A stretch of 64,000 bases of DNA from a virus (lineage: Duplodnaviria; Heunggongvirae; Uroviricota; Caudoviricetes), in the IMG/VR virus record IMGVR_UViG_3300015214_000024, positions 9,787 to 73,786 of that record; one strand, given 5' to 3'. Below, piece by piece: positions 5,495-59,184 of this stretch. Position numbers and translations under genes: made by a program. Under the pieces are notes generated by a model. The model was not told the DNA's origin and made no database searches. It saw nothing but the letters and a program-made list of their open reading frames with translations. Position 1 is the stretch's first letter; every line of letters starts with the position of its first letter.

Positions 5495-5572
5495 GCAGGC
5501 GTAGTGCTCAGTGGCAGAGCCGGGGTCTCTAAAACCCGTCGGTCGTGGGTTCGATGCCCACCGCTTGCACCA
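5495..5572 (+). tRNA. tRNA with anticodon CUA (candidate amber suppressor), CCA encoded; atypical 4-nt spacer between acceptor and D stems
   Basis: acceptor GCAGGCG/CGCTTGC (one G-U), D-arm GCTC-AGTGGCA-GAGC, anticodon loop CUCUAAA, T-arm GTGGG-TTCGATG-CCCAC, A73-CCA, then T5. Confidence 0.5.
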
Positions 5573-8016: not shown

Positions 8017-8314
8017 GGACTTATCAGCTGGTGATCGGCAGGGTATTATTGATGCCCTGAACAAAGCTATTATGAACCTCTATGAACAAGCGAAGGATTG
8101 TGTAAATGATCCCGAGTTTGCTGACTTGGAGGATATGTATAAGGGCGATGCCTCTGATCACGAAGGAATTCTCGAGCGGTTTATCGCCGGGGATTACAAG
8201 TCAGCAGCCCGTCAATTCCAATATATGGACACTGCATCAAGGGACAATGTGTTCGCGTTCTTCCAAAGCAAACAACACGAGCGGGCATTCATTTACTTTC
8301 TGGAGAACAGTTAA
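8006..8314 (+). CDS. hypothetical protein (102 aa)
   Basis: overlapping start. Confidence 0.5.
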   Translation: MVSEDLSAGDRQGIIDALNKAIMNLYEQAKDCVNDPEFADLEDMYKGDASDHEGILERFIAGDYKSAARQFQYMDTASRDNVFAFFQSKQHERAFIYFLENS

Positions 8315-8592
8315 TGTTCAAATGGGTTGAGGGTCGACAGAACAGTGGCTATTTCAAAATGCTTCTGTTTCGATCCAAACTGCTCAAAATGGATATGTAC
8401 CTTCTCAAATTTGAAGAAGGGGTCGTAGTGCCTTGGCATAAGGACCCTGCCAAAACTGGTCAACATTTTCGTTTCAATTTATATCTCACTCGTCCTGGTG
8501 GTGGCGAGCTTCTAATAGAAAAAAATAAGAAGGCTATTTTTCCAATCGACTTTGTCACCTGTTTCGTGCAGATGATATTCAACACGCAATGA
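8314..8592 (+). CDS. hypothetical protein (92 aa)
   Basis: TAATG coupling. Confidence 0.5.
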   Translation: MFKWVEGRQNSGYFKMLLFRSKLLKMDMYLLKFEEGVVVPWHKDPAKTGQHFRFNLYLTRPGGGELLIEKNKKAIFPIDFVTCFVQMIFNTQ

Positions 8593-8644
8593 CGCAGGTA
8601 GAAGGTGGAACCCTCTATATGCTCTCTATCGGGAAGGTTATATA

Positions 8645-9004
8645 ATGTTTGGCATCATGTTTTTGATCGGTCTTTTTCTGTGTCTAGTTCTATTTGTGTG
8701 CTATACATTTTATGACGGATCAGTATGGCAAGCATCGCGCAACCCGGACAAATATACAGTCATCGACGTCCGAACTGCCAAGACTCCAGTCAAGCATGGA
8801 GTTGCCGTTGTGCAATATGATGCTTGGGGTGACCCATATGTCGACTTTGGTATTTCTGGCAGTTACCCACTCACTGGTACTTTGAAGGTGCTAGAGAACG
8901 GTAAGATCCAGGAGCTGTACCACAACACTGAATGGCGTTTGCGTTCTGGTCCAGAGATCATTTGGCCGAACAATTCTGGCCGCAAAGCATTTGATGGATT
9001 TTAA
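8645..9004 (+). CDS. hypothetical membrane-anchored protein (119 aa)
   Basis: N-terminal TM helix. Confidence 0.55.
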   Translation: MFGIMFLIGLFLCLVLFVCYTFYDGSVWQASRNPDKYTVIDVRTAKTPVKHGVAVVQYDAWGDPYVDFGISGSYPLTGTLKVLENGKIQELYHNTEWRLRSGPEIIWPNNSGRKAFDGF

Positions 9005-9066
9005 TTTTTTCTATTGACTGCTTTCTAAATTTTGCTATTGTCCTGACATAGCAAACGGAGATTCCA

Positions 9067-9783
9067 ATGACTGACCTCAACGCAACCTGGAACGAAGCAC
9101 AGCGTGGTCCACGTATGTCAGAAGCAACTGGCAAGGTAATGTTCAAGTATCAGATGCCCGTTAAGGAACAGTTCACTATGGAACTCCCTACCGGCGCACA
9201 GATTATCCGTATGCAGGATATGGATGGCTTCTTCTGGCTGTGGGCAGTCGTCGATACTGACGCGCCGACCGAGAAGCGTTTCTTTCGTGCGTTCAAGACC
9301 GGCGCCAAGATTCCCGACGATTTCGACACCAGTCACTACGTTGGCTTCTGTGCCGTGTTCGTGCAGATGGAACTGGGCCTCTACATTTTCGAAGATCGTG
9401 CAGCGTATGACCAGCTGAATCGAATCAAGGACCGTTTCCAGGTCGAGGATGCTCCTATCACAAAGAGTGCCACGCTTCGTGAGATCGCACAGAATGCTGG
9501 TAAGAAGGTGATTGACATCAAGCTGTCCAGTCAAAGTGCTGAAGACTTTGCTGGCATTCCCTCTTTTCACGTCAACGAAGAAAACGCCCGCAAGTGGTTC
9601 AAAGAAGCAACCGCTTGGATGTATGAGGATCCGAAGAAGCAACTGAAGCTTGACATTGACGAAGTGCTGTCAGAATTCGAAGATGTACTACGGCCGATCA
9701 TTTTTCCCACTGTTAAAAAGCTGACCCAAAAGCTCATCGACGAAATCGAAGCGGCTGGCGGTTTCGAGGAGGACGAGGAATGA
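9067..9783 (+). CDS. hypothetical protein (238 aa)
   Basis: GGAG RBS; promoter TTGACT-N16-TATTGT upstream. Confidence 0.65.
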   Translation: MTDLNATWNEAQRGPRMSEATGKVMFKYQMPVKEQFTMELPTGAQIIRMQDMDGFFWLWAVVDTDAPTEKRFFRAFKTGAKIPDDFDTSHYVGFCAVFVQMELGLYIFEDRAAYDQLNRIKDRFQVEDAPITKSATLREIAQNAGKKVIDIKLSSQSAEDFAGIPSFHVNEENARKWFKEATAWMYEDPKKQLKLDIDEVLSEFEDVLRPIIFPTVKKLTQKLIDEIEAAGGFEEDEE

Positions 9784-9980
9784 AAGTACATCTCCATTCG
9801 GAACAATTTGACGGCTACTTACACGCCGCCTGTTACCGAGCACCATTTGATCCTCCGGCTCCTGATCCCAGAATTGTCGGCGAAGATGATTTTGAGAAAC
9901 TGCCAAGAGCGGCCAGGTGTCATTACTGCACTCGAATCAATTGGCCGCGTGGTGGAGATCCTATCAACGGTGAAATTTAA
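9780..9980 (+). CDS. hypothetical protein (66 aa)
   Basis: ATGA coupling. Confidence 0.45.
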   Translation: MKVHLHSEQFDGYLHAACYRAPFDPPAPDPRIVGEDDFEKLPRAARCHYCTRINWPRGGDPINGEI

Positions 9981-9983
9981 TTA

Positions 9984-10029
9984 TTGACTCTTATGCCATT
10001 TCCTGTAAAAGGGACTGGTAACAAGGAGG
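9984..10029 (+). promoter_or_regulatory. promoter/leader cassette copy C (TTGACT-N16-TGtAAAAG + GGACTGGTAACAAGGAGG)
   Basis: same architecture as A/B. Confidence 0.45.
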
Positions 10030-10031
10030 CA

Positions 10032-10688
10032 ATGATGCGTTACGGAAATCTTCCCACTGATCTCGGCCTAGTGGATATCTCTCCCAAGGAGATGATGTTC
10101 CATATGTATATGCCAATCAGTCTTCCAGGATCGGATCAAGTATATCTTCCTGAGCACCTCGAAGTGTTCAAGCCCCTCGTTGTCAAGGCGTGGGAAGATG
10201 AGCGCGAACGTTTCCGCGAAGAATATGTTTACCTGACTGCCAAGACCCTTTGGGTCAGCGGCCAGTATATTGGTAATCGGCCCGGATGGCACTCAGATGG
10301 ATTCGGCACAAACGACCTCAATTATATTTGGGCCGATCGAGCGCCGACTGATTTCCTCCACAGCCGCGAGGGTTTTGAATTTGAAGGTCACAATTGTGAC
10401 CACTTCTACACCTTGTGCGATATTATGGAAGAAGATACGTGGCGGCGGGACTGTGGTCGATCCTGGAGTATCAAGCAGTTTGCTGACAAGCATTTGCTCA
10501 AGTTGGATCCGAGCGTGATCCATCGTAGCCCAGTCGACTTTGAAGATGGAATGCGTTCCTTCGCCAAGGTCAGTATCTCTCCTGACCAGTATAATCTGGA
10601 GGGTAATGCCAGCAATTACCTTTTGGATCTTGACTGGAAGATGAAACCGCGTAATGTAGATCGCAATCATCCCAACAAAAGAGACTGA
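10032..10688 (+). CDS. hypothetical protein with HxD...H motif (possible cupin/2OG-oxygenase-like)
   Basis: GWHSDG and downstream His; assignment tentative. Confidence 0.55.
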   Translation: MMRYGNLPTDLGLVDISPKEMMFHMYMPISLPGSDQVYLPEHLEVFKPLVVKAWEDERERFREEYVYLTAKTLWVSGQYIGNRPGWHSDGFGTNDLNYIWADRAPTDFLHSREGFEFEGHNCDHFYTLCDIMEEDTWRRDCGRSWSIKQFADKHLLKLDPSVIHRSPVDFEDGMRSFAKVSISPDQYNLEGNASNYLLDLDWKMKPRNVDRNHPNKRD

Positions 10689-10689
10689 T

Positions 10690-10881
10690 ATGATTTTCAA
10701 AATCACTCCCAAAACTGCGCACGAGCGAAATCGTGTGCGTGAACACGGAAATCTTTGGGAGACCTACTCTGGCAATTGTGTCACCAAAGGTGATTCAAAA
10801 CTCCTAACGTCTACCCAGACTGGATACAGCCGTTGGTGGATGAACGATCAGATAGAAAAAGTAGTTGACAACGAGGGTTGA
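10690..10881 (+). CDS. hypothetical protein (63 aa)
   Basis: overlapping start. Confidence 0.45.
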   Translation: MIFKITPKTAHERNRVREHGNLWETYSGNCVTKGDSKLLTSTQTGYSRWWMNDQIEKVVDNEG

Positions 10882-11065
10882 TTTAGCTACATTGACCTTA
10901 CCAGCGGCGGGGACGCTCAATCAACCCGGTCCTAAGCATCTGCGGACTAAAGAGGATGGCCTTACGGTGTTGGGTGTCAACACTGCCCGGGACACTGGAG
11001 GAAAGTGTGTCGCTTGTTTTGGGATCAAGATTCAAAAACCGAGGGCGAGAGTCCTGGACGAGGCA

Positions 11066-11102
11066 AAAGTCCAAGGGGAGGCAACGTGGTAAACTGCCTC
11101 CC
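11066..11102 (+). terminator. rho-independent terminator GGGGAGGCA...TGCCTCCCC + ATTTTCTT
   Basis: 9-bp GC stem plus T-rich tail. Confidence 0.7.
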
Positions 11103-11148
11103 CATTTTCTTGACTTGACTCCTTGTTGGTTTGTGCTATCAATCAAAT

Positions 11149-11478
11149 ATGAAATATCAATTCATCCTCGTCGAAATGAATGTCCCTCTGGATGACGTGA
11201 TTGGGTTCATACGTGACGATGAACGCAATTATAATCGAGTAGAAGAACCCCTCCAAATCGAAGCCGTGAAGGCTTGGCCTGGGTGTCTGGAATATATGGC
11301 AAAACCATCAAAAGCAGTCCAGGAAGCAGCCATTAGGCACAACCCAATCAACATTGGGCGCATCCGAAAACCGACCAAAGAGATTCAATTACTGGCAGTG
11401 CAGCTAGATCCTAGGGCGATCGAAATGATTGAAAAGCCTTGTGACGAAGCTAAGTCATTGGCAACACTTTTAGCTTGA
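11149..11478 (+). CDS. DUF4116-like repeat protein (109 aa)
   Basis: repeats of P..E.Q..AV...P.ai.yi pattern as in the 27.8-31.1 kb array. Confidence 0.5.
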   Translation: MKYQFILVEMNVPLDDVIGFIRDDERNYNRVEEPLQIEAVKAWPGCLEYMAKPSKAVQEAAIRHNPINIGRIRKPTKEIQLLAVQLDPRAIEMIEKPCDEAKSLATLLA

Positions 11479-14133: not shown

Positions 14134-14833
14134 ATCCTCCAGCTTTTAATGGATGGCCAGATTTTGTTTTCTTATTAATAGCATTTGAAATGGCGCCTTG
14201 TCCAATCCCTAAGGTTTGAGCTGCTTGTTTCATAGACTCCCATTCCTTTATAACTTCTCCAGATAAATCACACTGATAAACTCTCATACGCTGCGATTGG
14301 GCGTTCTTTCTACACAGTGCCCGAGTTTGTTCTAATTTGGATCCAGAAAGAGGTTGTGCCCAAGTTCCGTTTAAGAGCTTTGTCGCCTTGATTTTGTCTC
14401 TAACAGCTTGCCCCTTAACTGGATCATTATAAGTGGCCCTAACTGAGTCAGATCGTTTTTGAATTATTTTATCACATTCTGGATGATCGCCAATAGTATT
14501 TCCACCAGTTCCTCCTGATGTGATATTCATCAATGTTCCGTTTTTGTCAATACCCTTTCTACCATATTGAGATATCAATTCCATTTCAAAATTTAAGGCT
14601 TGCTCTTTGGATTCAAATTCAGTATAAGAGTATTCAACAGAACGTCCTTCTTTAAGGAGTTTTTTAATCTTGCGAGTTTTTCTTGGATTATAATCTTCCC
14701 CTAACCCATATCCAAGATCCTTGTCGCCCCTGGCGAATTTTTCGTGTGAATACATTCTATCACCAGTGCCGTATCCCACATAGAACGGCGTGCCTTGATC
14801 TGATAAAATATATGTATAATAAACTTTCGCCAT
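14114..14833 (-). CDS. GIY-YIG homing endonuclease with C-terminal DNA-binding region
   Basis: VYYTYIL...PFYVGYGTGDRMYSHE GIY-YIG motif; AT-rich; opposite strand to flanks. Confidence 0.75.
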   Translation of the reverse strand: MAKVYYTYILSDQGTPFYVGYGTGDRMYSHEKFARGDKDLGYGLGEDYNPRKTRKIKKLLKEGRSVEYSYTEFESKEQALNFEMELISQYGRKGIDKNGTLMNITSGGTGGNTIGDHPECDKIIQKRSDSVRATYNDPVKGQAVRDKIKATKLLNGTWAQPLSGSKLEQTRALCRKNAQSQRMRVYQCDLSGEVIKEWESMKQAAQTLGIGQGAISNAINKKTKSGHPLKAGGFRWIMR

Positions 14834-14867
14834 TGACTCAAGTTCCTTTCAATGTTATTGTGTATTT

Positions 14868-15548
14868 ATGACAGAAGTATCCCGCTACCCTCGAACACTA
14901 CACTGGCCAACTAGCCCTGGGGTGCAGTCCGATGACAAGATTCATCGAGACATTGATCGCCTGATCGGGATGCCGGTCACTATCACGGAAAAGATGGACG
15001 GCAGCAACGTAACTCTCTGCAATGGAGAAGTTTATGCTCGTTCCACAGCCGTATCTAGTCAACACGCTTGGCACGGTATGGTGCGAAAGCACCACGCTTG
15101 GAAGACTCAAGAGCTTGGTCCAGACTATAAAATCTGTGGCGAAGATATGTATGCCATCCATTCAATTGAATATGATGGCTTCCGAGAAGATGAGACTTTT
15201 CGAGTCTTTAATATCCTCTACAAAGATACTTGGCTGTCGTTTGCTGATCGAGCTGCTCTTTGCCAACAGCTTGGGCTTATGATGGCCCCTGTTTGGATTA
15301 CTGGGGCCGTGTTCCAGAATCAAAAAGACGTCGACAAATGGTTCGCAAATGTTATGAAGATGGGAAGCAAGCTCGGCCCTGTCAGCGAAGGATTTGTAAT
15401 TCAGATCGAAGACGCCTTTCATAAAGATGATTTTCGAAATTGTGTTGCGAAATACGTTAGGGCTGGCCACGTTCAAACAGATCAACACTGGTCAAGGAAC
15501 TGGAAGCCTTGTAGGCTACTTCGTCCGTCGACGGACTTCCATCCGTGA
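14868..15548 (+). CDS. ATP-dependent RNA ligase-like nucleotidyltransferase (PF09414-type)
   Basis: motif I TEKMDGSN, III GEDMYA, IV EGFVIQ, V KYVRAGH. Confidence 0.6.
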   Translation: MTEVSRYPRTLHWPTSPGVQSDDKIHRDIDRLIGMPVTITEKMDGSNVTLCNGEVYARSTAVSSQHAWHGMVRKHHAWKTQELGPDYKICGEDMYAIHSIEYDGFREDETFRVFNILYKDTWLSFADRAALCQQLGLMMAPVWITGAVFQNQKDVDKWFANVMKMGSKLGPVSEGFVIQIEDAFHKDDFRNCVAKYVRAGHVQTDQHWSRNWKPCRLLRPSTDFHP

Positions 15549-15580
15549 GCTTCCATCCGTGGAAGCTCTTCCACGGAGAC
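15539..15580 (+). promoter_or_regulatory. hairpin/repeat element TCCGTGGAAG-ctc-TTCCACGGA (member of CCACGGA family)
   Basis: perfect inverted repeat just upstream of RBS of 15599 gene. Confidence 0.35.
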
Positions 15581-15598
15581 ACTTGAAAGGAAATGTAG

Positions 15599-15967
15599 AT
15601 GGCATTTTGGGATCGTTCTAAAACCAATCGGCTGAAGAAGCCGAAAGGTGTGAAATTAGCATATATGACTGATCCAAATGTCATCAATAAAACTCGCACT
15701 ACTTTCTACGGCTGTCCTTGGCCAAATCTGGGCGATTATGTGTTTGTCGGTAATAGTCCAAGTGCTGGCACTGTAGGCCGCGTTCGCCGATATGAGACTG
15801 GGTATGAATGCCACGGCGGCCCCGCAATTGAGATTGAAATGCTCTCTGGAGAGATCAAGACTGAATGGGTTTCTTATTCCCTAGTGATTGATTATGCCGC
15901 CGTCCAGGAAGTCAAAGATTTCTACATTGCTGACGGTCGTCCGCAGCGAATTCAAGTGCCTTGGTGA
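15599..15967 (+). CDS. hypothetical protein (122 aa)
   Basis: RBS AAGGAAATG. Confidence 0.55.
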   Translation: MAFWDRSKTNRLKKPKGVKLAYMTDPNVINKTRTTFYGCPWPNLGDYVFVGNSPSAGTVGRVRRYETGYECHGGPAIEIEMLSGEIKTEWVSYSLVIDYAAVQEVKDFYIADGRPQRIQVPW

Positions 15968-16029
15968 TTTTTTCCTGTTGACTGTATAGTCCAAGTGCCG
16001 TATAAGAATACAAATTTTCGGAGGTTTAT

Positions 16030-16689
16030 ATGAGCGTTTTGGACAAGATCAAAGAAGCCAACAAGCAGGGCAAAGTGTATCGTGTAAGTGACCCTTCCGA
16101 ACTGGTTGAACAGCTTCCTGACGGTCGTTCAGTCATCGTTGTCCTTAGCCAGGGCAAGTATGAAGACTCGAATATGAAAACGAGTCGCTATATGGGCCCG
16201 TTCCGCAGCGAACCTGCCGTTTTACTCAAGCCCCTCAAGTATGTTGTCCGCGGCGGCCCAAAGGGTGGCATCACCTCCAAGGGCACGTATCAGGCTGGTG
16301 AAGCAGTGCGTATTATGGGTTGGCCTGGCTTTACGGACAAGACTTGCTGCGATCTCATTACTCTGCTGGGAGACCAAGACCTTCCTAAGGGTGAAGGCGC
16401 CCGCGAGGATCTGTATTCTCGAATCATTTCCTGCAAAGAAGGAACTTACGTTAACCTTCAGGAAGGCGTTGATTTTGAATATACTGGTGCGGCTCCGATC
16501 TCTGCTGCTAAGACGAAAGTCGATGCTATTGCGGTGCGAGATATTGATTACGTGGACGAGATGTTTTGCGATGGTACCATCTATGCAATGACTTCTGTTC
16601 ATCTTTGCACACAGTTCGGCGAAACTTTCCTGGAATACGAAGGAACTCGAATCCTCGACAATCCAGTTGAAGGCGAGGACTACATCTAA
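16030..16689 (+). CDS. hypothetical protein (219 aa)
   Basis: GGAGG RBS; promoter TTGACT-N17-TATAAG upstream. Confidence 0.65.
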   Translation: MSVLDKIKEANKQGKVYRVSDPSELVEQLPDGRSVIVVLSQGKYEDSNMKTSRYMGPFRSEPAVLLKPLKYVVRGGPKGGITSKGTYQAGEAVRIMGWPGFTDKTCCDLITLLGDQDLPKGEGAREDLYSRIISCKEGTYVNLQEGVDFEYTGAAPISAAKTKVDAIAVRDIDYVDEMFCDGTIYAMTSVHLCTQFGETFLEYEGTRILDNPVEGEDYI

Positions 16690-16809
16690 TGTCAGTCTGC
16701 CACGAAGGATACGATACCGTCTGTGGCAAATTCTGTACGTATCCGGAGTGTATGAGACTTCGCCATCTCTCCGATCCAGGCCCGTATGATAAATCCAACG
16801 AGGAAGAAG

Positions 16810-17016
16810 ATGAAAACGTATCAGGATATGTTCAACGGCCCAGTTGATTATGAAGTCGGAGAACTGATCAAACTTCTTCGAAAAAGTCATCTCGAATCTG
16901 GCGGAGATCCTGTTGACTTCCCGGCATTTCTTGCTAAACAAGGGATAACAGCCGTTGGCCCATTCATCAAAATCGATGATAACGCCAAGTCCATTATCGC
17001 TTTGTTGAAGGATTAA
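16810..17016 (+). CDS. small protein (68 aa), paralog of the next gene
   Basis: GAGGAAG RBS; shares RKS.LESGGD..DFP.FL..GI motif with 17022..17228. Confidence 0.5.
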   Translation: MKTYQDMFNGPVDYEVGELIKLLRKSHLESGGDPVDFPAFLAKQGITAVGPFIKIDDNAKSIIALLKD

Positions 17017-17021
17017 ATTTG

Positions 17022-17228
17022 ATGGATCAATTTTTTAGCCAATTCGGAGAGAAAGGTTGTTTTGACCTTAGTGCTAAGGTACGACTCTTCCGCAAGTCGT
17101 TCCTGGAAAGCGGTGGCGATCTTGCCGATTTTCCAAAATTTCTGGAAGAAAATGGTATTAAGGCTGATGGGGCATCGATTACTGTCGACGATCGTGCTAA
17201 TACTCTGGAACAATTTTTGAAGGATTGA
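17022..17228 (+). CDS. small protein (68 aa), tandem paralog of 16810..17016
   Basis: sequence similarity to preceding gene. Confidence 0.5.
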   Translation: MDQFFSQFGEKGCFDLSAKVRLFRKSFLESGGDLADFPKFLEENGIKADGASITVDDRANTLEQFLKD

Positions 17229-17231
17229 AAG

Positions 17232-17702
17232 ATGCTTATTCACGCTAAGGGTAATCTTCTCGCTATGGCCGCCGAAGGCCAATTTGATGTTATCGTCCAC
17301 GGCTGCAACTGTCAGGTTGATATGGGTGGCGGGATTGCTAAGCAAATTGCAGAGCAGTATCCGGAAGTGGCTGATTTGGATGCCAGCTTCAATGAAATGT
17401 TCGTCCACAAAGCTCTAATGCTTGGCAACATTGAATGGACTGATGTCGACGATGATGCTTTTACCATCGTCAACGGATATACCCAATTGATGGGCGGAAG
17501 TGGCACTTTCAGCTATGCTGCTCTGGAACTGGTGCTGATGAAAGTCGGAGCCGTATTTGCCGGTAAGCGCATTGGACTTCCTTACATCGGCTGTGGCATC
17601 GCCGGCGGGGACCAGAACAAAGTCGTTGACTTGTTCGAACTATTTGCTATAAAGGCTGCAAAGGACGGGACGAAAGTGACGCTCGTCGAATTTGCCCCGT
17701 AA
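17232..17702 (+). CDS. macro-domain (ADP-ribose binding/hydrolase)-like protein
   Basis: DVIVHGCNCQ..MGGGIAKQI and IGLPYIGCGIAGG resemble macro motifs. Confidence 0.5.
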   Translation: MLIHAKGNLLAMAAEGQFDVIVHGCNCQVDMGGGIAKQIAEQYPEVADLDASFNEMFVHKALMLGNIEWTDVDDDAFTIVNGYTQLMGGSGTFSYAALELVLMKVGAVFAGKRIGLPYIGCGIAGGDQNKVVDLFELFAIKAAKDGTKVTLVEFAP

Positions 17703-17711
17703 GGAGATAAA

Positions 17712-18206
17712 ATGCCCCATTACCTATACATTCTAACTGTTACGAAGGATATGCCTTCGATGGGTCGCGGTAAGAGCGTTGCTCACGCTGCCCACGCTGC
17801 TAATTTGTTCACGTATGATCATTACGTAACAACGGACAATGACAATCCGCCATTGGATGAAGTAGTGGAATGGCACGAAAGTGCTAATGGTTTCGGCACC
17901 ACCATTGCCTTGGATATTGGCACTGTTGCTGAAATGGAAGCTATTATTGCAGAATCAAAGGGTCACGAATGTCTGTCTGGCATTGTAGTCGATCCCACAT
18001 ATCCGTATTTTGTGGATGCTGAGATCGTATCGCTGATCCAGCCGGAACTCCACACAATGGAACCAATTCGGTTGGATACTGGCTCGTATCTCTGCCACCG
18101 CAAGCAGGCAACTGCTGCTTATATTTTCGGCGACAAGGAGGCTCTTGCGCCGCTGTTGAGCAAATATAATCTGCTGTCCAATGACACAGTGCCTCGCGCT
18201 CGCTGA
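17712..18206 (+). CDS. peptidyl-tRNA hydrolase, PTH2 family-like
   Basis: MGRGKSVAHAAHAA matches PTH2 GKGK..AQ.AHAA motif. Confidence 0.6.
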   Translation: MPHYLYILTVTKDMPSMGRGKSVAHAAHAANLFTYDHYVTTDNDNPPLDEVVEWHESANGFGTTIALDIGTVAEMEAIIAESKGHECLSGIVVDPTYPYFVDAEIVSLIQPELHTMEPIRLDTGSYLCHRKQATAAYIFGDKEALAPLLSKYNLLSNDTVPRAR

Positions 18207-18268
18207 TCGCCTTATGGGGAATTACATCCTGCTCCGTCATTGACGGAGCAGGACCCCTCAATGGTAAG

Positions 18269-18487
18269 ATGACATTTGAGCGTCGATTTAATATGGATCA
18301 CGTTCAGATTGTTGCTGGGGCTGCTCTCAAGAAGCTAGAGGCTGGCGAGCCTCATACTAATGTCGGTGTTGAGTTCATCATTGAGCAGCTACTGGTGGAA
18401 AAAGACTGGGCTGGCTTGGGCCTAGATCCGTATGTGGCTCCTATCAATTACGAAGCCGTTGAGGAACTGAAAAAGTACCTTACTTAA
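18269..18487 (+). CDS. hypothetical protein (72 aa)
   Basis: ORF; 9-bp hairpin CCTGCTCCG/CGGAGCAGG upstream. Confidence 0.45.
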   Translation: MTFERRFNMDHVQIVAGAALKKLEAGEPHTNVGVEFIIEQLLVEKDWAGLGLDPYVAPINYEAVEELKKYLT

Positions 18488-18752
18488 TTTTACCGCCACA
18501 TTCTACAAAGCTGGCTTCAAGTTCAATAACATACTCTTTGAGTTGAGCCAACGATTTTCTCATAACAGTGTTTTGCTCTTCTAAATGCATACCAGTTCGT
18601 GCGCGGTCTAAATCTGTTGATTTTCTTTTAACAGTAACATCACATATTACAACTTGAGCTGTTGGGATTGGTTGCACAACAGGATGACTTTTCGGTGTCG
18701 ATGCACACGCTGCCAGTAAACTAATGACTGGTATGATTATCCATTTTTTCAT
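18480..18752 (-). CDS. lipoprotein (o-spanin-like or exclusion lipoprotein), 90 aa
   Basis: signal peptide with lipobox LLAAC; 4-nt overlap with upstream membrane protein. Confidence 0.55.
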   Translation of the reverse strand: MKKWIIIPVISLLAACASTPKSHPVVQPIPTAQVVICDVTVKRKSTDLDRARTGMHLEEQNTVMRKSLAQLKEYVIELEASFVECGGKIK

Positions 18753-19264
18753 TTATTAGCGCTCCAATCTATGATGAATTGATCATTAATCTGTTCTTCA
18801 GTTTCAACTCGTTGTGCTGGTGTCTTACCACTTGGGGCTGGGCGGCTATATTTTCTAACTAAATGCTGGTAATAAGTCTTTTCTCTGCGTAGCTGGGCTG
18901 CTTCTTGCTTAGATTCAGCTATTTCCTGCTGTAATTGCTGAACCGTTACATTGACTACTTTTACTTTACCAGGAAGCCTAACAGTGCGTTCTTTAACTTT
19001 ATAAGTTTCGATAACTTTAGCTTGTTCCTGGATGATTTTAGTCTTTTCCTGGATAATGTATCTTGTTTCAACCAATGTACCAATAGTAACTACCCAAACA
19101 CAGCAAAGAACTACGGCTAAAGTCATAAGGAATGCTTCTGCTTCTGAAGCTGGTGTTTTAATTATTCGCTTTCGGGCCCATTGCCAGATAGCTTTCAAAA
19201 ATTTCCCCACCATTCGAAATGGAAAAAGTAAAGCTGATAAAACCTTTTTAAAATTTATTTTCAT
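18749..19264 (-). CDS. membrane protein with N-terminal TM and long coiled coil (i-spanin-like), 171 aa
   Basis: GAGGA RBS; TM + coiled coil; paired with lipoprotein. Confidence 0.55.
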   Translation of the reverse strand: MKINFKKVLSALLFPFRMVGKFLKAIWQWARKRIIKTPASEAEAFLMTLAVVLCCVWVVTIGTLVETRYIIQEKTKIIQEQAKVIETYKVKERTVRLPGKVKVVNVTVQQLQQEIAESKQEAAQLRREKTYYQHLVRKYSRPAPSGKTPAQRVETEEQINDQFIIDWSANK

Positions 19265-20694: not shown

Positions 20695-21537
20695 ATGAAA
20701 TTTGATCTTATGTCTGACCTTCACGTGGACCTTTCTCCGAGTTTTAGACTCGATTATGGTTCTATGGCAACTAGCCCTATTGCAATTGTTGCTGGTGATA
20801 CTTCAAACGATCCAGATACTACAATCTTCGAACTAGAACGAATCGCTTCCCATTATGAGCAAGTATTGTTCATTGACGGGAACCACGAACATTATGATAA
20901 TCGTGATGAGACTCGTCGCCGCTCAGACAGGATGCCTGAGTGGGTATATGCTTACCTGCATAGCAACTTTAGGGATCACCCTAATATCACGTATCTGGGC
21001 TCTGGAATCAAGCCTGTCATTATTGGCACTACCGCATTTGTTGGTGCTAATGGATGGTACGACTTTAATTGGTTGTCTACTCCTCAGGATTATTGCATCC
21101 AGAACTGGTACAGCAAAATGAATGATTCTTATTGGGCGAACATTGATCACGGCTGGGTCTTGAATGAGTGTACAAGGCTAACAAATAACATCGTGCAGAC
21201 AGTCGATCAACTAAACCAAGACCCAGCAATTAAAGATATTGTGTTGGTAACCCACACGATTCCTATTGAAGCTGGGGTTTATTATCACCCCACAGATCCG
21301 ACTTGGAATGCACTCAACGGGTGCTATTTGAACTCACAAATCAAAGCAGCACACAAAGGCAAAGTACGTGTCCATTGCTTTGGACACACTCACAGAAGGC
21401 AATTGTTCAACATCAATGGCATCGACTTTGCCTGCAACCCACGAGGCTATCAAGGCGAGCCTGGATTTGCCAGCTGGACTCCTATGGAGATAGATCTTGG
21501 GAGCTTTAAAGTTTCAGCTTTTGGAGAGATTGAATGA
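20695..21537 (+). CDS. calcineurin-like metallophosphoesterase
   Basis: GDTSND ... GNHEHYD motifs. Confidence 0.7.
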   Translation: MKFDLMSDLHVDLSPSFRLDYGSMATSPIAIVAGDTSNDPDTTIFELERIASHYEQVLFIDGNHEHYDNRDETRRRSDRMPEWVYAYLHSNFRDHPNITYLGSGIKPVIIGTTAFVGANGWYDFNWLSTPQDYCIQNWYSKMNDSYWANIDHGWVLNECTRLTNNIVQTVDQLNQDPAIKDIVLVTHTIPIEAGVYYHPTDPTWNALNGCYLNSQIKAAHKGKVRVHCFGHTHRRQLFNINGIDFACNPRGYQGEPGFASWTPMEIDLGSFKVSAFGEIE

Positions 21538-41799: not shown

Positions 41800-42990
41800 T
41801 TACTGAAGTTCAGTCGTTTCACCCTTGCGTGTCAGATAATCAGGTGATACCATCTTAAGCATCTTGCGGCCAATGAAGCCAGTATCAGCATTGTCGTCAT
41901 CACGGATGACAATACCTTCCTTGAGAGTCTTACCGTCAATTGACGACTTGCCATCACGCAGTGTGATCAGGTCAGCATCACCATATCGGCCCTTGAACAG
42001 TAGCGGAACCGTTTCAACACCCAAGCTCTTGGTGACTTTTTCAAAATTCCGATATGAATCAACCTCGCCGTCAGACACTGTATCAAATGCCAGGAACTTC
42101 GGCGGAGTGCTGTAGCCAAGATCCTGAATGCCTTGGCCAAAAGTTTCGCCAAGAATCAGGAATGCTGATTCGTTTTCAGTCTCACCATACAGGTTAGCAA
42201 GCTGCTCAGAGGTTCGCGAATCAAGGAACGTCTTGAGCGACCTCATATAGAGATTCTTGGCCAAGTTCGTTTCGTTGGCCCTGAAGCAGAGCCCCTTAGA
42301 ACCAAGGCCCTTACTATATGCAGTAGCATACAAGGTGCCTTCCTCAGTCACAACTTCCAAGAAATCTTCACGCTTTTCAGTCGTAAAGATGAAACCGGTA
42401 AAAGTGCCGTGAAGCTTTTCAGTAATATTCACAATGTCGTCAGGGAAGAAGACATTTTCGAACTTCTGAGCATTTTCAATGTCGAACTTGTAGATGAGAT
42501 CATACGAATGACTGAACACTTCACCACCCATACTGGCTGGAATAGGCGGCTCATACTTCGTGATGCCAAGCTGTTCAGCAACGTCCCAGCCGATGCCCAC
42601 CTTGTGGATTTCGCCATCAGCCATACGCATCCACTTGCGGTAATGCGTACCAGTTTCTTCGTTAGTGATGCCACAGCAGGGATAGATAACACCCTGGCTC
42701 AAGATGCCGCGCAGCCGCATTGCCTTGATACGATCGCCGTTAGATCCGTTAAGACGGCCTTTGCCCTTCTCATCGTCCCAAAAATCCAACTCCTTGAGGA
42801 GCCATTCAGGAAGCACTGAGCCTTCCGGGATATATGCAACAGGATCACCATCCTTATAGCGATGGCTCCCATCTTCCAGCTTCGCGCTAATACACGTAAA
42901 GCCGTTGATATCAAGAAGGCTTAGCCTGTCAGCATTCGGATGATCACGAACGTTCTTGACCTGCTCAACCAGCACTTCAAACTTAGACAT
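41800..42990 (-). CDS. RNA ligase (Rnl2/PF09414 family) fused to N-terminal tRNA-binding (EMAP/Myf-like) domain
   Basis: N-term VEQVKNVRDHPNADRLSLLDI...MRLRGILSQG; ligase motifs I EKLHGT, III LILGETFG, IV EGIVIR, V KMLKMV. Confidence 0.7.
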   Translation of the reverse strand: MSKFEVLVEQVKNVRDHPNADRLSLLDINGFTCISAKLEDGSHRYKDGDPVAYIPEGSVLPEWLLKELDFWDDEKGKGRLNGSNGDRIKAMRLRGILSQGVIYPCCGITNEETGTHYRKWMRMADGEIHKVGIGWDVAEQLGITKYEPPIPASMGGEVFSHSYDLIYKFDIENAQKFENVFFPDDIVNITEKLHGTFTGFIFTTEKREDFLEVVTEEGTLYATAYSKGLGSKGLCFRANETNLAKNLYMRSLKTFLDSRTSEQLANLYGETENESAFLILGETFGQGIQDLGYSTPPKFLAFDTVSDGEVDSYRNFEKVTKSLGVETVPLLFKGRYGDADLITLRDGKSSIDGKTLKEGIVIRDDDNADTGFIGRKMLKMVSPDYLTRKGETTELQ

Positions 42991-44142: not shown

Positions 44143-44513
44143 TTTACAGTTCCTGCCTTTTAGTTTTATTTATTTTCACAAGATATAGTAAAAAACAGCC
44201 GATTTAAACACAATCAGTAGATTATCTACTACATTTAGTAGTATGACACTACATCTATGTACTACATATAGTAGTGGCTCAAATAATTAAAATTCTTGCA
44301 TTTTTCACGTATCGATACATAGGATTTTTGACATTTTTTACCACATACTATATGTTGTGGTGAATAGTGCTGATTCAACACGATATAGCACAAGATATAG
44401 TAGCTAGATCTAGTTTTTGGCTTATTTCAATTTTTTTTCGTCATATTAGAAAAATCTGTTGACTCGTTCCGGCATTCATATAGAAGGGCTTGGTAATCCA
44501 AGAAGGAATCAAA

Positions 44514-45686
44514 ATGTTCAAGTTTGTCCACATTTACCACCTCGACGACGTGCGTCACGCGATCTCGGAAGACTTCTTCCTGGCAGAGCGCGATTGGGGA
44601 TATGTGATCAACTATCACATCAACGCTTTTCCGGAAATCAAGGACGAGATGAGCGACGAGGAAAAGGCGCTTGAATATGCTCGTCGTGAATTCCGCGGCA
44701 TCAAGTTTGCCAAGGATGGTACGCTGCTGGCTCGTCCGTTCCACAAGTTTTTCAACTGGGGTGAGAAGGAAGCTGAGATGGCTCAGTTCGACTTCGATAT
44801 GCCTTTCGTGATTATGGACAAGCTGGATGGTTCGATGATCCATCCGATGTTGGTGGATAACAAGATCGTGTGGTGCTCCAAGATGGGCCCGACGGATGTT
44901 GCCCTACAGGCCGAAGCGTTTGTGGGAACCCATCCGGAATATGTGGAGTTTGTGCTGGCTGCTATGGGCGGCGGCTATACTCCGATTTTTGAATGGTGCT
45001 CGCGTAAGCAGCGCATTGTGGTCGACTATCCGGAAGATGCACTGATCCTGACTGCCATCCGCGACAACCGGACTGGCGAATATGTGGGTATGCCGTCAAT
45101 GAAAGCGAAGGCTGAGCATTACGGTATCCCGGTGGTGAAGACCTGGAATGGCACCTTCAACGGCATCACGGACTTTATGGAAGCCGTTGGTGGTGAAGAG
45201 CAGTGTGAGGGTTATATCATCCGGTTCGAGAATGGCCATATGGTCAAGCTCAAGAACGCCTGGTACTTGAATCTGCACCGTGCCAAGGATCAGCTGAGCA
45301 ACGAAAAGAATGTCTACCGTCTAGTGCTCAGCGAGCATCACGATGACCTCTTGCCGCAGTTGGATCCGGATACCCGCAAGGCTCTGGAAAACTTTGCTTC
45401 TGACCTGAGCAACGCTGTGAAGGTACAAGCTGCTACGCTGGCCAACGCTGTGGCTGAGAATTGGAAGCTCTACAGCAACCGCCGTGATTTTGCTCTCAAC
45501 TTTGGTAGCAAACAGGAACTCTCCGCCGTGGTCTTCAAGATCCTGGATGGTAAGGATTCCTACGAAGCTCTTGTTGATTGGCTGCTGGCTCAGACGTCGA
45601 CTCAAGCCAAGCTGGATGCTGCTAAGAAGAAGTTCGGTCAGCTCAACTGGTCGGAATATTATTACGCGGTGGATATGGATGGCTAA
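44514..45686 (+). CDS. rnlA: RNA ligase 1 (T4 RnlA-like)
   Basis: collinear similarity to T4 Rnl1: FRGIKFA, PFHKFFNWGE, motif I IMDKLDGSM, DNRTGEY, EGYIIRFENGHMVKLKNAWY. Confidence 0.8.
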   Translation: MFKFVHIYHLDDVRHAISEDFFLAERDWGYVINYHINAFPEIKDEMSDEEKALEYARREFRGIKFAKDGTLLARPFHKFFNWGEKEAEMAQFDFDMPFVIMDKLDGSMIHPMLVDNKIVWCSKMGPTDVALQAEAFVGTHPEYVEFVLAAMGGGYTPIFEWCSRKQRIVVDYPEDALILTAIRDNRTGEYVGMPSMKAKAEHYGIPVVKTWNGTFNGITDFMEAVGGEEQCEGYIIRFENGHMVKLKNAWYLNLHRAKDQLSNEKNVYRLVLSEHHDDLLPQLDPDTRKALENFASDLSNAVKVQAATLANAVAENWKLYSNRRDFALNFGSKQELSAVVFKILDGKDSYEALVDWLLAQTSTQAKLDAAKKKFGQLNWSEYYYAVDMDG

Positions 45687-53041: not shown

Positions 53042-55354
53042 ATGAAGATTGAAGAAGCAGGCGTTGAGACTTTCTCGCTTGGTCAGAAGGAAGTTTCCGT
53101 TGCCAAGATCCAAGCAAGTGCCAAAGCGTTTGAGATCCTGAGCTCAAGCCTTTATTCCAACAACATTCTCGCAATCATCCGTGAGCTTTCTGCAAATGCG
53201 AAGGACTCGCACAAGGCTGCTGGCTGCCCTGAGAAGCCGTTTGACATTCAGCTGCCCAATAAGCTGGACCCTAGCTTCAAGGTTCGTGACTACGGTGTAG
53301 GTATGGATCATCAATTCGTGATGACTCGCCTGAACACTTACTTCGATTCTACCAAGAACGACAGTAATGAAGAAATCGGCGGCTTCGGTCTCGGCATCAA
53401 GTCAGGCTTCAGCTATACTTCCAGCTATATGATCGTCACATTCGACGGCACGACACGCCGTGTCTACGCTTTCCAGATCGGCGCCAGCGGACTTCCTGAG
53501 ATCAGCTTCCTGGCTGAAACTCCGTCGACTGAGCCTCGCGGTGTTGAGCTCAGCATTCCGGTTATGGACAAGGACTATGACCGCTTCCGCGAAGAAGCTA
53601 TCGAAGCTCTGACGTTCTACGAACCCAAGCCCAACATCAGCGGCGTTGATGCTTCCGCGTTCGACATTAAGCCTTTGTTCCAAGGCACTGGCTGGAAGAT
53701 TTACCAGAATCCTGGCCGCCTCAAGAATGAAAACTATGTCGAGATGGGCAATGTGATCTATCCGGTCATTGAAGAAAACAATCCTTACGACGAATCTCGC
53801 CACTACCGCCACCATCGCCGCGGCCGCGGCGCAGATATGATTATGGTCTATAGCGCCGGCATTGGTGAGATTGACATCACTCCGAACCGCGAGCAGATCA
53901 AGCTGACCGATCGATCCAAGGCCCGAATCACCAAGTTTGAAGAAACGGTAACTGAAGAATTGATGGCCACTATCCAAGGCTGGCTGGATAAGGAAACTGG
54001 TACGCTTTGGGAAGTCCTGCGCGGCGATACGGTGCGCCGTATCCACGACCAGTCCTACTTCTTCGAGAGCCGCAAGGTTGATCTGAAGAAGCTCAAGTAT
54101 AAGGGCTATCAGATTATGGTCGGCGAGTTCCGTTATACTGAAAAGAGCCCGGCTGCTGACAAGGTGGTAAAAGGTCACACCTTGCAAGAGCAGTATGGCG
54201 AGATTCGTATGGATGAGCATCGGATGGCTCATTATGGCATCCAAATCTCAGCCCGGCATTCGGAAAGCGTTGGTATCATTATTGGCACTCCTGGTTGGAC
54301 GGCGAAACTGAACCAAGCCGGCGCTCGTAAGTTGATCAATCAGACAAAGAAGGTGCTTTATCTGCTCGACGTCAAGGCTGCTGATCAGGCCGATGTTATT
54401 GCCGGTCTCAATAAAACCTTCCCGGACTTTGCTGATAACATTTACAATTGGGATGATTTCAAAGCTGGGATCAAGGCAGCCAAGCCGGAAAATGACTACT
54501 ATACTTATGACCTGAAGGATGGTAACTCACGTTATTATAATGAAGGTAATAAGAAGGAGTTCAATATCAAGGACTTCAGCAAGAAGAAGACCATTTATTA
54601 TGGCACGTATAAGCCTAAGGCAAATAACCTTAGGAATTACCATTACAACCGCGAGTCGACGCGAATTCAGGAAATCTTGAGTAGCTGTTATGACGAGACC
54701 TATGATGAGATCCTGGCCAAGCTGAACGGCGAGAAGGTTGTATATGCTTTCCTTGAATCCCAGGTCAAGGAACTGGAAGCTGCAGGATTCAAGCTGGTGG
54801 ACTTTGTTACCACTTTCGAAGAACTGCTCCATCAGGTCGCCGTTGAATTTGCTGCTGAACGTCCTACAATGACGCTGAAGGAATACCTGAAGCCGTTGCA
54901 GGAAAAGAACCCTGAGATTAGCATCTCCACGTTCTACAAGGCAGTGAAGCGTTGGGCCCGCGAATGCGGTATGGAGGACGAGTATCAGCTTCTCCTCAAG
55001 CTGAACGACCCGTCATCATCCTCTTACCGTGCCTCGGCTAATGACCAGCTGTTCCGCCAGGTTCACAAGATGACCATCAAGGAATATGTGAAGAAGCACA
55101 ACCTCAAGCCGGCCAAGCCGACCAGTAACCAGTTCGCGATCGACCTCCGTGACAAGGCCCCGCTGCTCAGCTACTTGATCACTCGCTATAGCGTCCCTGA
55201 TGTTATTGATTATGTGAAGAAGGAAGTGGCTGGTATTGTGAAGGCTCCTGCTCCGGCTGCTACCGTGAAGGCTCCGCCAAAGCGTAAGCCTAGGCCGCAA
55301 CCGGTGGTGATTCAGACCATCAACCCGTTGTCGCTTATCCCGACAGCACAGTAA
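53042..55354 (+). CDS. rIIA: rIIA-like protein (GHKL ATPase N-domain), paralog 1 (770 aa)
   Basis: collinear with T4 rIIA: ASAKAFEILSSSLYSN, IRELSANAKDS (N-box), VRDYGVGM (G1), IGGFGLGIKS (G2). Confidence 0.8.
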   Translation: MKIEEAGVETFSLGQKEVSVAKIQASAKAFEILSSSLYSNNILAIIRELSANAKDSHKAAGCPEKPFDIQLPNKLDPSFKVRDYGVGMDHQFVMTRLNTYFDSTKNDSNEEIGGFGLGIKSGFSYTSSYMIVTFDGTTRRVYAFQIGASGLPEISFLAETPSTEPRGVELSIPVMDKDYDRFREEAIEALTFYEPKPNISGVDASAFDIKPLFQGTGWKIYQNPGRLKNENYVEMGNVIYPVIEENNPYDESRHYRHHRRGRGADMIMVYSAGIGEIDITPNREQIKLTDRSKARITKFEETVTEELMATIQGWLDKETGTLWEVLRGDTVRRIHDQSYFFESRKVDLKKLKYKGYQIMVGEFRYTEKSPAADKVVKGHTLQEQYGEIRMDEHRMAHYGIQISARHSESVGIIIGTPGWTAKLNQAGARKLINQTKKVLYLLDVKAADQADVIAGLNKTFPDFADNIYNWDDFKAGIKAAKPENDYYTYDLKDGNSRYYNEGNKKEFNIKDFSKKKTIYYGTYKPKANNLRNYHYNRESTRIQEILSSCYDETYDEILAKLNGEKVVYAFLESQVKELEAAGFKLVDFVTTFEELLHQVAVEFAAERPTMTLKEYLKPLQEKNPEISISTFYKAVKRWARECGMEDEYQLLLKLNDPSSSSYRASANDQLFRQVHKMTIKEYVKKHNLKPAKPTSNQFAIDLRDKAPLLSYLITRYSVPDVIDYVKKEVAGIVKAPAPAATVKAPPKRKPRPQPVVIQTINPLSLIPTAQ

Positions 55355-57663: not shown

Positions 57664-59184
57664 ATGACAATTCTTGCAGTTTCTTTTTCGGGTGGCACGG
57701 AAAAGGCTATCGGTAGCCTTGTAGTCACCACCGACTCCCGAGTGTTTACGCTCACAAATGATCACAAGGATTTCGACGATATCCTTGCTCTGCTCAAGTC
57801 AGGCGATCACGCCCAGGCTGAACTTCGTCTGGACCGCGCTATGCACGTTCGCGCCGCAGTTGCCGACACGGCATTCAGCATTAACGGCAACGTCGTTACT
57901 TACAACGGCCGCCAGTTGCCGGCGGTGATGGCGCAGTACATTATCCGACTCAATACTGAAGGTTTCGACCTCTCGCCGCTCGAGAAGTTCACCGCCAATC
58001 TGTTCGCCAACCCCAGCTATCGCGCCACGCAGGAATGCTTCAAGTTCCTCGAAGCCAATGAGATGCCGATCACGGAAGACGGCTGCTTTATCGCTTACCG
58101 CTCTGTTACGCTGGACTACAAGGATCACCGCACTGGTACGTTCGACAATAGCGTCGGCGCCGTTTGTAAGGAAGACCGCAACCTGGTCGATGAAGATCCG
58201 AACAACACCTGTTCCAAGGGTCTGCACGTTTGCGCTCTCGGCTACATCCACGGCCCTGAATCGCACGGCTACGGCGGCAGCCGTTCGCACTGGGTGATTG
58301 TCAAGGTCAACCCGCGTGATGTGGTCGCTGTACCGCACGATTACAAGAACACCAAGATGCGCGTTTGCGAATTTGAAGTGGTCGGCCAGCTGGACAAGAG
58401 CAAGATCGCTCCTACGGCCAAGAAGTCCTACGCTGAAGACAATGTGGTCTACAAGCCGGCACCGAAGGCTGCTCCTGCTGCTCCAAAGGCTGAATCCGAT
58501 CAGTCGATGATCCAAGCTGGTAAGTTCTACGAACTCGGCCAGAAGCACGCCGCTCGTAATGACGAGCGCGGTAGCGGTGATCCGCTCACGTCGGTCAGCT
58601 TCAATAGCAGCACCAGCTATGAACTTTATATGGCCGGCTACGAAGGTCGTCCCCGACCGACTGCGGTGATGACGGCTGTCCCGGCTGCCGGCGGCAACGC
58701 AGGCATTGCCCGTCAGATGTTCAACGAGGGCCGCTATACTGACCTGATGCGTTTCAAGAAGGAAAAGCGCGTTGGTTTTGGGCGCCTCGGCTTTACGGCT
58801 GCTGAAGAGGCGATCATTGAGCAGAACCGTAATCAGAACGGCACTGTCTCATCGCCTGCCACCTACACCGACTCGCTGGGCTTTATTGTTCCCGCCAAGC
58901 TGGTGTTCGATGCTCACGGCTATGATCAGTTCGGCTTCCGCCGCTCGGGTAAGAACCGCAAGGGACAGACCCGCGGTGATCTTGGCTTTACCCGCACCAC
59001 TGCACCGCTTGCTCAGGTAAGCACCACAATCGCTTCGCCGGCTGCTACTTCTAATCAGTCAGCCAAGTATCAGGAAGGCTACCGTGATGGTCAGGCTGCT
59101 ACCAGCTTCAAGCCTCTCCAGGTTGGTAATGAATACTGGTCAGGCTACACGGCTGCTTGGAATGTGAATCCGAATCGCAAGTAA
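57664..59184 (+). CDS. rIIB: rIIB-like protein with long low-complexity C-terminal extension (506 aa)
   Basis: ITEDGCFIAYRSV..TFDNSVG..CSKGLHVC..VKVNPRDVVAVPHDY..KMRVCEFEVV matches T4 rIIB core. Confidence 0.75.
   Translation: MTILAVSFSGGTEKAIGSLVVTTDSRVFTLTNDHKDFDDILALLKSGDHAQAELRLDRAMHVRAAVADTAFSINGNVVTYNGRQLPAVMAQYIIRLNTEGFDLSPLEKFTANLFANPSYRATQECFKFLEANEMPITEDGCFIAYRSVTLDYKDHRTGTFDNSVGAVCKEDRNLVDEDPNNTCSKGLHVCALGYIHGPESHGYGGSRSHWVIVKVNPRDVVAVPHDYKNTKMRVCEFEVVGQLDKSKIAPTAKKSYAEDNVVYKPAPKAAPAAPKAESDQSMIQAGKFYELGQKHAARNDERGSGDPLTSVSFNSSTSYELYMAGYEGRPRPTAVMTAVPAAGGNAGIARQMFNEGRYTDLMRFKKEKRVGFGRLGFTAAEEAIIEQNRNQNGTVSSPATYTDSLGFIVPAKLVFDAHGYDQFGFRRSGKNRKGQTRGDLGFTRTTAPLAQVSTTIASPAATSNQSAKYQEGYRDGQAATSFKPLQVGNEYWSGYTAAWNVNPNRK

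Follow-up and report, generated by a model that had tools for sequence, protein, structure and literature searches.

Macrodomain proteins and peptidyl-tRNA hydrolases of the PTH2 type are both kinds of gene already known in phages. The stretch of DNA analysed here (hereafter the window), 64,000 nucleotides (nt) spanning positions 9,787-73,786 of the Caudoviricetes record IMGVR_UViG_3300015214_000024, carries one of each side by side: a gene for a predicted macrodomain, followed at once by a gene for a predicted PTH2-fold protein. All coordinates below are in window numbering.

Bacteriophage T4 encodes a stand-alone macrodomain protein, Tk.4, annotated as "phosphatase; contains A1pp phosphatase motif". 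In a T4 transposon library on a DarTG2 host, tk.4 was the single significant hit, and a clean tk.4 knockout was sensitised to DarTG2; the gene was renamed adfM (bioRxiv 10.1101/2025.11.20.689424). The bacterial macrodomain protein SCO6735 of Streptomyces coelicolor confers protection against DarT and releases ADP-ribose linked to thymidine in DNA; its Gln85 occupies the position of Lys80 in DarG (Thermus) and Lys84 in TARG1, and the changes Q85A and Q85E abolish activity (PMC9411070). Adpp, the macrodomain of Vibrio phage Gary, converts ADP-ribose-1''-phosphate, made by the RES-domain defence aRES, to ADP-ribose and overcomes aRES, and its closest characterised homologue is Poa1p (bioRxiv 10.64898/2026.01.28.702374).

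A PTH2 gene was noted in Klebsiella phage RaK2 in 2013 (PMC3622015), and a 2021 survey of jumbo phages discussed PTH2 as a possible ribosome-rescue and RNA-repair factor (PMC7824862). No experimental characterisation of any phage PTH2 was found in the literature. A precedent for action against a toxin comes from bacterial Pth, which detoxifies tRNA-acetylating toxins such as TacT (PMC4942678).

On balance, we consider it probable that the two window genes are independent accessory genes of a counter-defence and RNA-maintenance island, situated, in a large phage with rIIA and rIIB genes, in the plastic early region.

The macrodomain and PTH2-like genes are not a conserved pair

The two genes and the signal between them are as follows.

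17232..17702, + strand: predicted stand-alone macrodomain gene of the Tk.4/AdfM family and the ALC1/TARG1/Poa1p-like class; 156 amino acids (aa), stop codon TAA (profile, model and homology)
17701..17706, + strand: AAGGAG, putative ribosome-binding site (Shine-Dalgarno) of the PTH2-like gene, overlapping the macrodomain stop codon and lying 5 nt 5' of the ATG (read from the sequence)
17712..18206, + strand: predicted PTH2-fold gene, long viral variant; 164 aa, stop codon TGA (profile and model)

A first-pass annotation made from the letters alone had placed both open reading frames (ORFs) at these positions and on this strand, and the placement holds. The ORFs are separated by 9 nt, and each protein has numerous metagenome homologues at 40-97% identity, so that both are genuine genes and not chance ORFs.

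To survey neighbourhoods, 52 loci with a PTH2-like gene (metagenomic or phage contigs, labelled L001, L003 and so on) were reduced to 26 clusters at 70% identity, and neighbours were scored at a distance of 10 kb. A Tk.4-type macrodomain lies within this distance in 5 of the 26 clusters, four of which make up the window's extended clade; the fifth is contig L024. Within the clade, a homologous 104-aa ORF separates the two genes in L001, in L013, whose PTH2-like protein is 92% identical, and in L058, which branches more deeply. In L058 four genes intervene, a homing endonuclease among them, and L003 has a different 67-aa ORF at this place. The window holds no copy of the 104-aa ORF that its relatives keep, and the 9-nt abutment is thus most simply explained by secondary loss of the intervening ORF. 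Distribution also differs, with the macrodomain found in about 1980 phage records versus 17 for the PTH2-like gene. In Atu_ph07, Phosso and L004 the genes that lie upstream of PTH2 were tested as candidate macrodomains and are not macrodomains. The adjacency is a local accident and not an operon-level partnership, and the first-pass proposal that the two proteins together reverse host or defence modifications falls with it; the proteins would act independently of one another.

Gene order in the clade is RNA ligase, a 122-aa ORF in some members, a 219-aa ORF, a small ORF, macrodomain and PTH2, followed in three of four lineages by a metallophosphoesterase. Three further window genes belong to this order.

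14868..15548, + strand: small RNA ligase (PF09414) of 226 aa; upstream of the macrodomain gene throughout the window's clade
16030..16689, + strand: 219-aa protein, function unassigned, clade-restricted; always between the ligase and the macrodomain gene
20695..21537, + strand: calcineurin-like metallophosphoesterase, 280 aa; follows the PTH2-like gene in three of the extended clade's four lineages

The metallophosphoesterase was not found within the shorter flank of L058/59. Homologues of the 219-aa protein are confined to the clade, and it has no Pfam family and no informative name (only "hypothetical protein" at JGI). The immediate neighbours of the macrodomain gene are this ORFan, two small paralogues and the PTH2-like gene. 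The small ORFs, at 16786-17016 (76 aa) and 17019-17228 (69 aa), lie just 5' of the macrodomain gene and align over 55 residues with the motif KS.LESGGD..DFP.FL; relatives hold one ORF of 67-68 aa where the window has two.

Such an order could be read as a single RNA-repair pathway, in which the phosphoesterase heals broken tRNA ends for the upstream ligase to seal, PTH2 takes the peptide off peptidyl-tRNA that has been damaged, and the macrodomain disposes of ADP-ribose, either that left over when 2'-phosphate is removed with NAD+ or that placed on RNA. A scheme of this kind has been put forward for jumbo phages (PMC7824862). The sequence of ligase, 219-aa ORF, macrodomain and PTH2 is kept across the clade down to 49% macrodomain identity, and in the unrelated L024 a stretch of no more than 10 kb brings together two RNA ligases and a macrodomain with PTH2, a metallophosphoesterase and a P-loop protein. 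A small ligase and a PTH2-like gene also co-occur in Atu_ph07/Phosso and in Caulobacter jumbo phages, although the ligase and PTH2 are tens of kb apart in jumbo phages with both. Among the window Pfam matches listed (25 of 31 families) there is no Tpt1/KptA or polynucleotide-kinase family, however, and 21 of the 26 PTH2-like lineages have no macrodomain nearby; where both genes are present, from zero to four ORFs, homing endonucleases included, lie between them, and the phenotype of T4 Tk.4 is DNA-related. We regard a shared repair pathway as improbable, and prefer to see two independent accessory genes.

Relationships and active site of the macrodomain

The product of 17232..17702 is predicted by profile and model to be a macrodomain of the ALC1/TARG1-like class, in agreement with the fold given by the first-pass annotation. 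It matches Pfam Macro (PF01661) with E=8.9e-5 and 22.9 bits (cut-off 22), over the N-terminal 25 residues only, and PHROG 335, "phosphatase", with E=2e-33. An AlphaFold model built from 46 sequences has a mean predicted local distance difference test (pLDDT) score of 89 and gives 224 PDB matches at E<=1e-3; among the 50 listed, all natural proteins are macrodomains and the remainder are designed hydrolases on a macrodomain scaffold. The top folds are Poa1p (yeast), DarG (Mycobacterium, Thermus), BT1257 (Bacteroides), TARG1 (human) and SCO6735 (Streptomyces), with template-modelling (TM) scores of 0.70-0.80. The ADP-ribose-binding loops read HGCNCQVDMGGGIA (residues 22-35) and LPYIGCGIAGGD (residues 116-127), and the loop sequences MGGGIA and GCGIAGG are invariant across the family.

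By sequence the protein is a homologue of T4 Tk.4, hence a T4-type gene (BLASTP E=3e-14, 25% identity, residues 4-156; family hidden Markov model (HMM) versus Tk.4, E=2.8e-21). Of the 1980 phage records in which tblastn found relatives, 946 are of Escherichia phages. The first-pass statement that neither protein is a standard T4 function is thus wrong for the macrodomain. Like Tk.4, it is a stand-alone macrodomain of about 155 aa that falls in PHROG 335 and has an HGCNC..MG.G loop, the N.YTQ motif and a P.IG.G loop. The setting is different: T4 tk.4 overlaps vs and lies near regB, whereas no homologues of its neighbours vs, vs.1, regB, tk, tk.1-3 and rI were detected in the window or its relatives. 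Anti-DarTG2 activity is known for T4 alone.

Within N.YTQ, Gln85 is invariant in 46 family members. In the HMM alignment, where the TARG1 sequence is PDB chain 2LGR residue for residue, Gln85 stands opposite the catalytic Lys84 of TARG1 and Ala124 opposite Asp125; T4 Tk.4 also has N.YTQ, with its Gln at the catalytic-lysine position. The window protein therefore resembles SCO6735 (PDB 5E3B; TM 0.74-0.77) in class, in having Gln for the DarG/TARG1 Lys and in having neither residue of the TARG1 Lys/Asp dyad, a correspondence drawn transitively through TARG1 and not from a direct alignment; it differs from this bacterial protein in sharing only about 20% identity with it. The C-terminal 97 residues, searched against the PDB for an alignment to SCO6735, gave only chance pectate-lyase matches. 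The DarG macrodomain (PDB 5M3E, 5M3I) is likewise similar in fold and class (TM 0.73-0.78), and DarG models give weak matches (PADLOC, 3.5e-5; NCBIfam, 0.0032, score 16.8 versus a cut-off of 250). Unlike DarG, however, the window protein has Gln85 in place of the catalytic Lys, is 156 aa long as opposed to about 340, lacks the C-terminal DarT-binding domain and has no adjacent darT. Its sequence thus fits a Gln-type mechanism and not that of DarG.

We infer from these correspondences an orphan hydrolase of the Tk.4 (AdfM) family, which would bind ADP-ribose through its two glycine-rich loops and cleave the bond at the 1'' carbon, the water being positioned by Gln, unlike the Lys of DarG and TARG1. 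The likeliest substrate would be ADP-ribose on thymidine of phage DNA, put there by DarT2-type toxins, with ADP-ribose-1''-phosphate as the chief alternative. The first-pass suggestion that the macrodomain reverses DarT-type ADP-ribosylation fits the requirement for its T4 homologue, tk.4 (adfM), against DarTG2 (bioRxiv 10.1101/2025.11.20.689424).

Several observations weigh against DNA adducts as the substrate. Identity to Tk.4 is only 25%, and the best solved sequence match is Poa1p (E=1.6e-5; profile E=3.9e-8), which also ties for best by fold and whose His23 corresponds to His22 of the window protein. Furthermore, three of four sampled macrodomain relatives at about 50% identity sit between Nmnat/Nudix and Nampt genes, near rIIA/rIIB, a position seen among loci L052-L057 that points to soluble ADP-ribose derivatives. 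(L055, a contig with rIIB, Nmnat/Nudix, macrodomain and Nampt genes, also has at 8262-9455 a 397-aa gene with a RuBisCO large-subunit Pfam match, as does L056.) The macrodomain might accordingly be an ADP-ribose-1''-phosphate phosphatase of the Adpp/Poa1p type, or another hydrolase of a soluble ADP-ribose derivative, serving NAD+ reconstitution against NAD+-degrading defences such as aRES. Adpp, compared here by its published description, is a precedent, with Poa1p as its closest characterised homologue, and is found in NARP1 operons much as these relatives are found in NAD+ salvage clusters. Yet no homologue of Nampt, Nmnat or phosphoribosyl pyrophosphate (PRPP) synthetase was detected within the 64-kb window. 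Two further Poa1p positions, whose importance, like that of His23, we take solely from the existence of mutant PDB entries, are changed: Ser30 is Asp30 in the window's clade (Thr in most relatives) and Phe152 is Ala124. At the invariant Gln85 position, moreover, Poa1p has Ser, whereas SCO6735, BT1257 and Tk.4 have Gln, and the genetically tested family member, Tk.4, counters DarTG2. We therefore favour the AdfM-like reading over the phosphatase reading, which is a possible but rather unlikely account of the gene.

A long viral form of the PTH2 fold

The product of 17712..18206 is predicted to have the PTH2 fold, as the first-pass annotation had it, although its own sequence matches the family poorly. 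Against Pfam PTH2 (PF01981) it scores 18.1 bits, below the cut-off of 23 (E=0.0032); relatives at 32-56% identity pass the cut-off. A single-sequence search of the PDB gave no match, and a profile was required: one built from 40 homologues finds the solved Pth2 proteins Ta0108 of Thermoplasma (8.7e-7), Sulfolobus Pth2 (2.8e-5) and human Bit1 (5.8e-3), the E values ranging to 1.3e-2. PADLOC and NCBIfam returned nothing useful. The structural model has a pLDDT of 91.5, and its 12 best PDB matches are all Pth2, with probability 1.0 and target-normalised TM scores of 0.65-0.76.

The PTH2 signature quoted in the first-pass annotation is present as MGRGKSVAHAAHAAN. Across the 40 homologues Gly20, His28, Ala29, Asn31 and Asp94 are invariant and Lys21 is conserved in at least 90%; in the alignment to Sulfolobus Pth2, Lys21 falls on Lys18 and Asp94 on Asp86. 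The protein thus resembles the archaeal and eukaryotic enzymes (Sulfolobus, 1XTY; Methanocaldococcus, 2ZV3; human Bit1/PTRH2, 1Q7S) in fold, in the motif GxGK..A(Q/H)AAHAA and in the residues aligned with Lys18/Asp86. It is unlike them in its 13-19% identity, in its length (164 versus about 115-120 aa), in reading DPTYP for DAGxT, and in an insertion of about 33 residues (approximately residues 99-131) that lengthens the last two strands and that neither the short phage forms nor the canonical enzymes of about 115 aa have.

At E<=1e-3, a set of 1.84 billion proteins yields 1232 representatives of the family. Among isolated phages it occurs in 17 records, all of them phages of alphaproteobacteria (Atu_ph07, Phosso and the Caulobacter Bertelyvirus group). 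The window protein shares its large-phage PTH2 fold with RaK2 ORF188 and with proteins of Sinorhizobium phage phiN3, Agrobacterium phage Atu_ph07 and Mycobacterium phage Myrna. The model matches an uncultured Caudovirales protein in BFVD (TM 0.79-0.83), where several matches are named peptidyl-tRNA hydrolase, and tblastn gives 35-40% identity to Phosso and Atu_ph07. Unlike the window protein, annotated phage PTH2 proteins are mostly short and without the insertion, and in Atu_ph07 and Phosso the gene lies among structural genes. That PTH2 in large phages was already annotated and discussed (RaK2, PMC3622015; PMC7824862; BFVD) counts against the interpretation offered in the first-pass annotation.

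For the function of this protein we infer, by analogy with bacterial Pth acting against TacT, an active esterase for peptidyl- or N-acyl-aminoacyl-tRNA. Such an enzyme would cleave the peptidyl or N-acyl-aminoacyl group off tRNA, refilling the tRNA pool during infection, a proposed recycling role that fits the RNA ligases, phosphoesterase and tRNA genes of the window. Some points weigh against this role. Of the residues of Sulfolobus Pth2 that we take to be catalytic from the mutagenesis literature, namely Lys18, Asp86 and Thr90, the third could not be mapped, DAGxT being replaced by DPTYP. The insertion might change the substrate. Finally, in 7 of the 26 clusters (L009, L024, L028, L030/31, L038, L040 and L041/42) the PTH2-like gene has genes for NAD+ salvage (Nampt, Nmnat/Nudix, PRPP synthetase) at a distance of 10 kb or less, the nearest being within about 350 nt in L028 and L030, and plain tRNA recycling does not explain this proximity.

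Other associations are with RNA. RNA ligases or tRNA genes are found within 10 kb of the PTH2-like gene in 9 of the 26 clusters, and in Ruegeria phage RpAliso the PTH2 gene is inside a cluster of 16 tRNA genes. In less than 20 kb, L024 combines Nmnat, Nampt, PRPP synthetase and a histidine phosphatase with the PTH2, metallophosphoesterase, P-loop, macrodomain and two RNA ligase genes noted above. We treat these associations, which fit islands of counter-defence and RNA or NAD+ maintenance, as leads and not as proof. In L058, a gene at 9678-10013, some 2 kb 3' of the PTH2-like gene, codes for a protein with a cREC_REC domain, a family for which cyclic-phosphate processing has been proposed.

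Directly 3' of the PTH2-like gene there is repeatedly a small ORF, about 105 aa long, which is seen in the window, in L013 and L003, and in a distant eleven-locus jumbo-phage cluster. It has no Pfam and no PDB match. In L013 and L003 its ATG lies inside the 3' end of PTH2. The corresponding features of the window are as follows.

18181..18487, + strand: small ORF region directly 3' of the PTH2-like gene; recurs in relatives, frame broken in the window
18227..18253, + strand: perfect 12-bp hairpin with a 3-nt loop, just past the PTH2 stop codon (fold energy and sequence)

A 1-nt insertion near 18233 breaks the frame, leaving an ORF of 72 aa from the ATG at 18269; the ORF could have become a pseudogene, or the change could be regulatory or an error of assembly. 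The same insertion partly creates the hairpin, which has no U-tract; the folding free energy of 18200-18275 is -32.6 kcal/mol (z = -4.3).

The PTH2 fold might have been turned to another purpose altogether, the protein not being a peptidyl-tRNA hydrolase and the insertion and small conserved downstream partner suiting it to a different ester substrate or to binding, perhaps in connection with NAD+ or ADP-ribose metabolism. The Pfam score below the cut-off and the insertion would suit this idea, as would the recurring function-unassigned ORF and the seven lineages with NAD+ salvage genes. Nevertheless, the GxGK..AHAAN motif and the residues aligned with Lys18/Asp86 are conserved family-wide, short members of the family score above the Pfam cut-off, and the gene lies among tRNA genes or RNA ligases in several lineages. 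The longer relatives (208-469 aa) have no recognisable second domain that would hint at another substrate. We therefore think such a change of function very improbable. A somewhat less improbable idea, though still a doubtful one, is that long-form viral PTH2-like enzymes and the recurring small ORF make up a dedicated counter-defence module, which would rescue toxin-N-acylated or peptidyl-trapped tRNA or act on an NAD+- or ADP-ribose-linked ester. It would explain why PTH2 is found again and again next to macrodomains, RNA ligases, clusters of tRNA genes and genes for NAD+ salvage.

The surrounding early region and what the genes mean

The description that fits the window best is that of a plastic early region in a large, uncultured phage that is probably T4-related. 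It contains two full-length rIIA-like genes in tandem (53042-55354 and 55434-57608; PHROG 612, E=4e-107 and 2e-114) and, 3' of both, an rIIB-like gene (57664-59184); rIIA identity to the nearest isolated phages is about 33%. No virion genes were recognisable among the window ORFs scanned. Megablast of 14800-18500 against 50,697 phage records returned zero matches, from which we conclude that no close isolate exists. Promoter and terminator scans gave no signal above background.

Pfam families of RNA ligases are matched by 14868-15548, by 41800-42990 and probably by a third, putative ligase at 44490-45686; for one of these ORFs there is a PHA02142 OB-fold domain, and for one a match to the T4 Rnl1 family (8e-28). 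Homologues of 44490-45686 adjoin PTH2-like genes in L040 and L024. There are three tRNA genes in the window. ARAGORN labels the tRNA at 5495-5572, with anticodon CUA, as tRNA-Pyl; it would be of the amber-suppressor type, with its CCA end encoded. TAG is the stop codon of only 6 of the 85 ORFs called.

On the minus strand, a 90-aa ORF (18480-18752), lipoprotein-like at its N-terminus (…LLAACAS), overlaps the end of a second ORF (18749-19264), of 171 aa, with a hydrophobic segment and a charged, helical-looking tail; from their sequences the two look like a spanin pair. In the 462-kb uncultured phage LR756500 (L014), an 826-aa protein with a major-vault-protein shoulder and repeat domains (8905-11388) is encoded between a macrodomain protein and an RNA ligase with an HD/kinase pair. 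The 6-kb distance from that macrodomain to the ligase and HD/kinase pair was given little weight, as unrelated genes lie between.

The macrodomain adds a divergent member to the Tk.4/AdfM family at a time when the family is being tied to DarTG2 evasion, and by its sequence the family appears to use the Gln-type active site of SCO6735. The macrodomain-PTH2 pair should not be catalogued as a system. The main remaining interest is in the viral branch of PTH2, which is without a characterised member, and in its recurring neighbours: the neighbourhood survey offers a handle on phage PTH2 in the form of NAD+ salvage genes, RNA ligase or tRNA genes and the small downstream ORF. If the PTH2-like protein is an active esterase, it would give phages a route to keep tRNA usable under defences that target translation.

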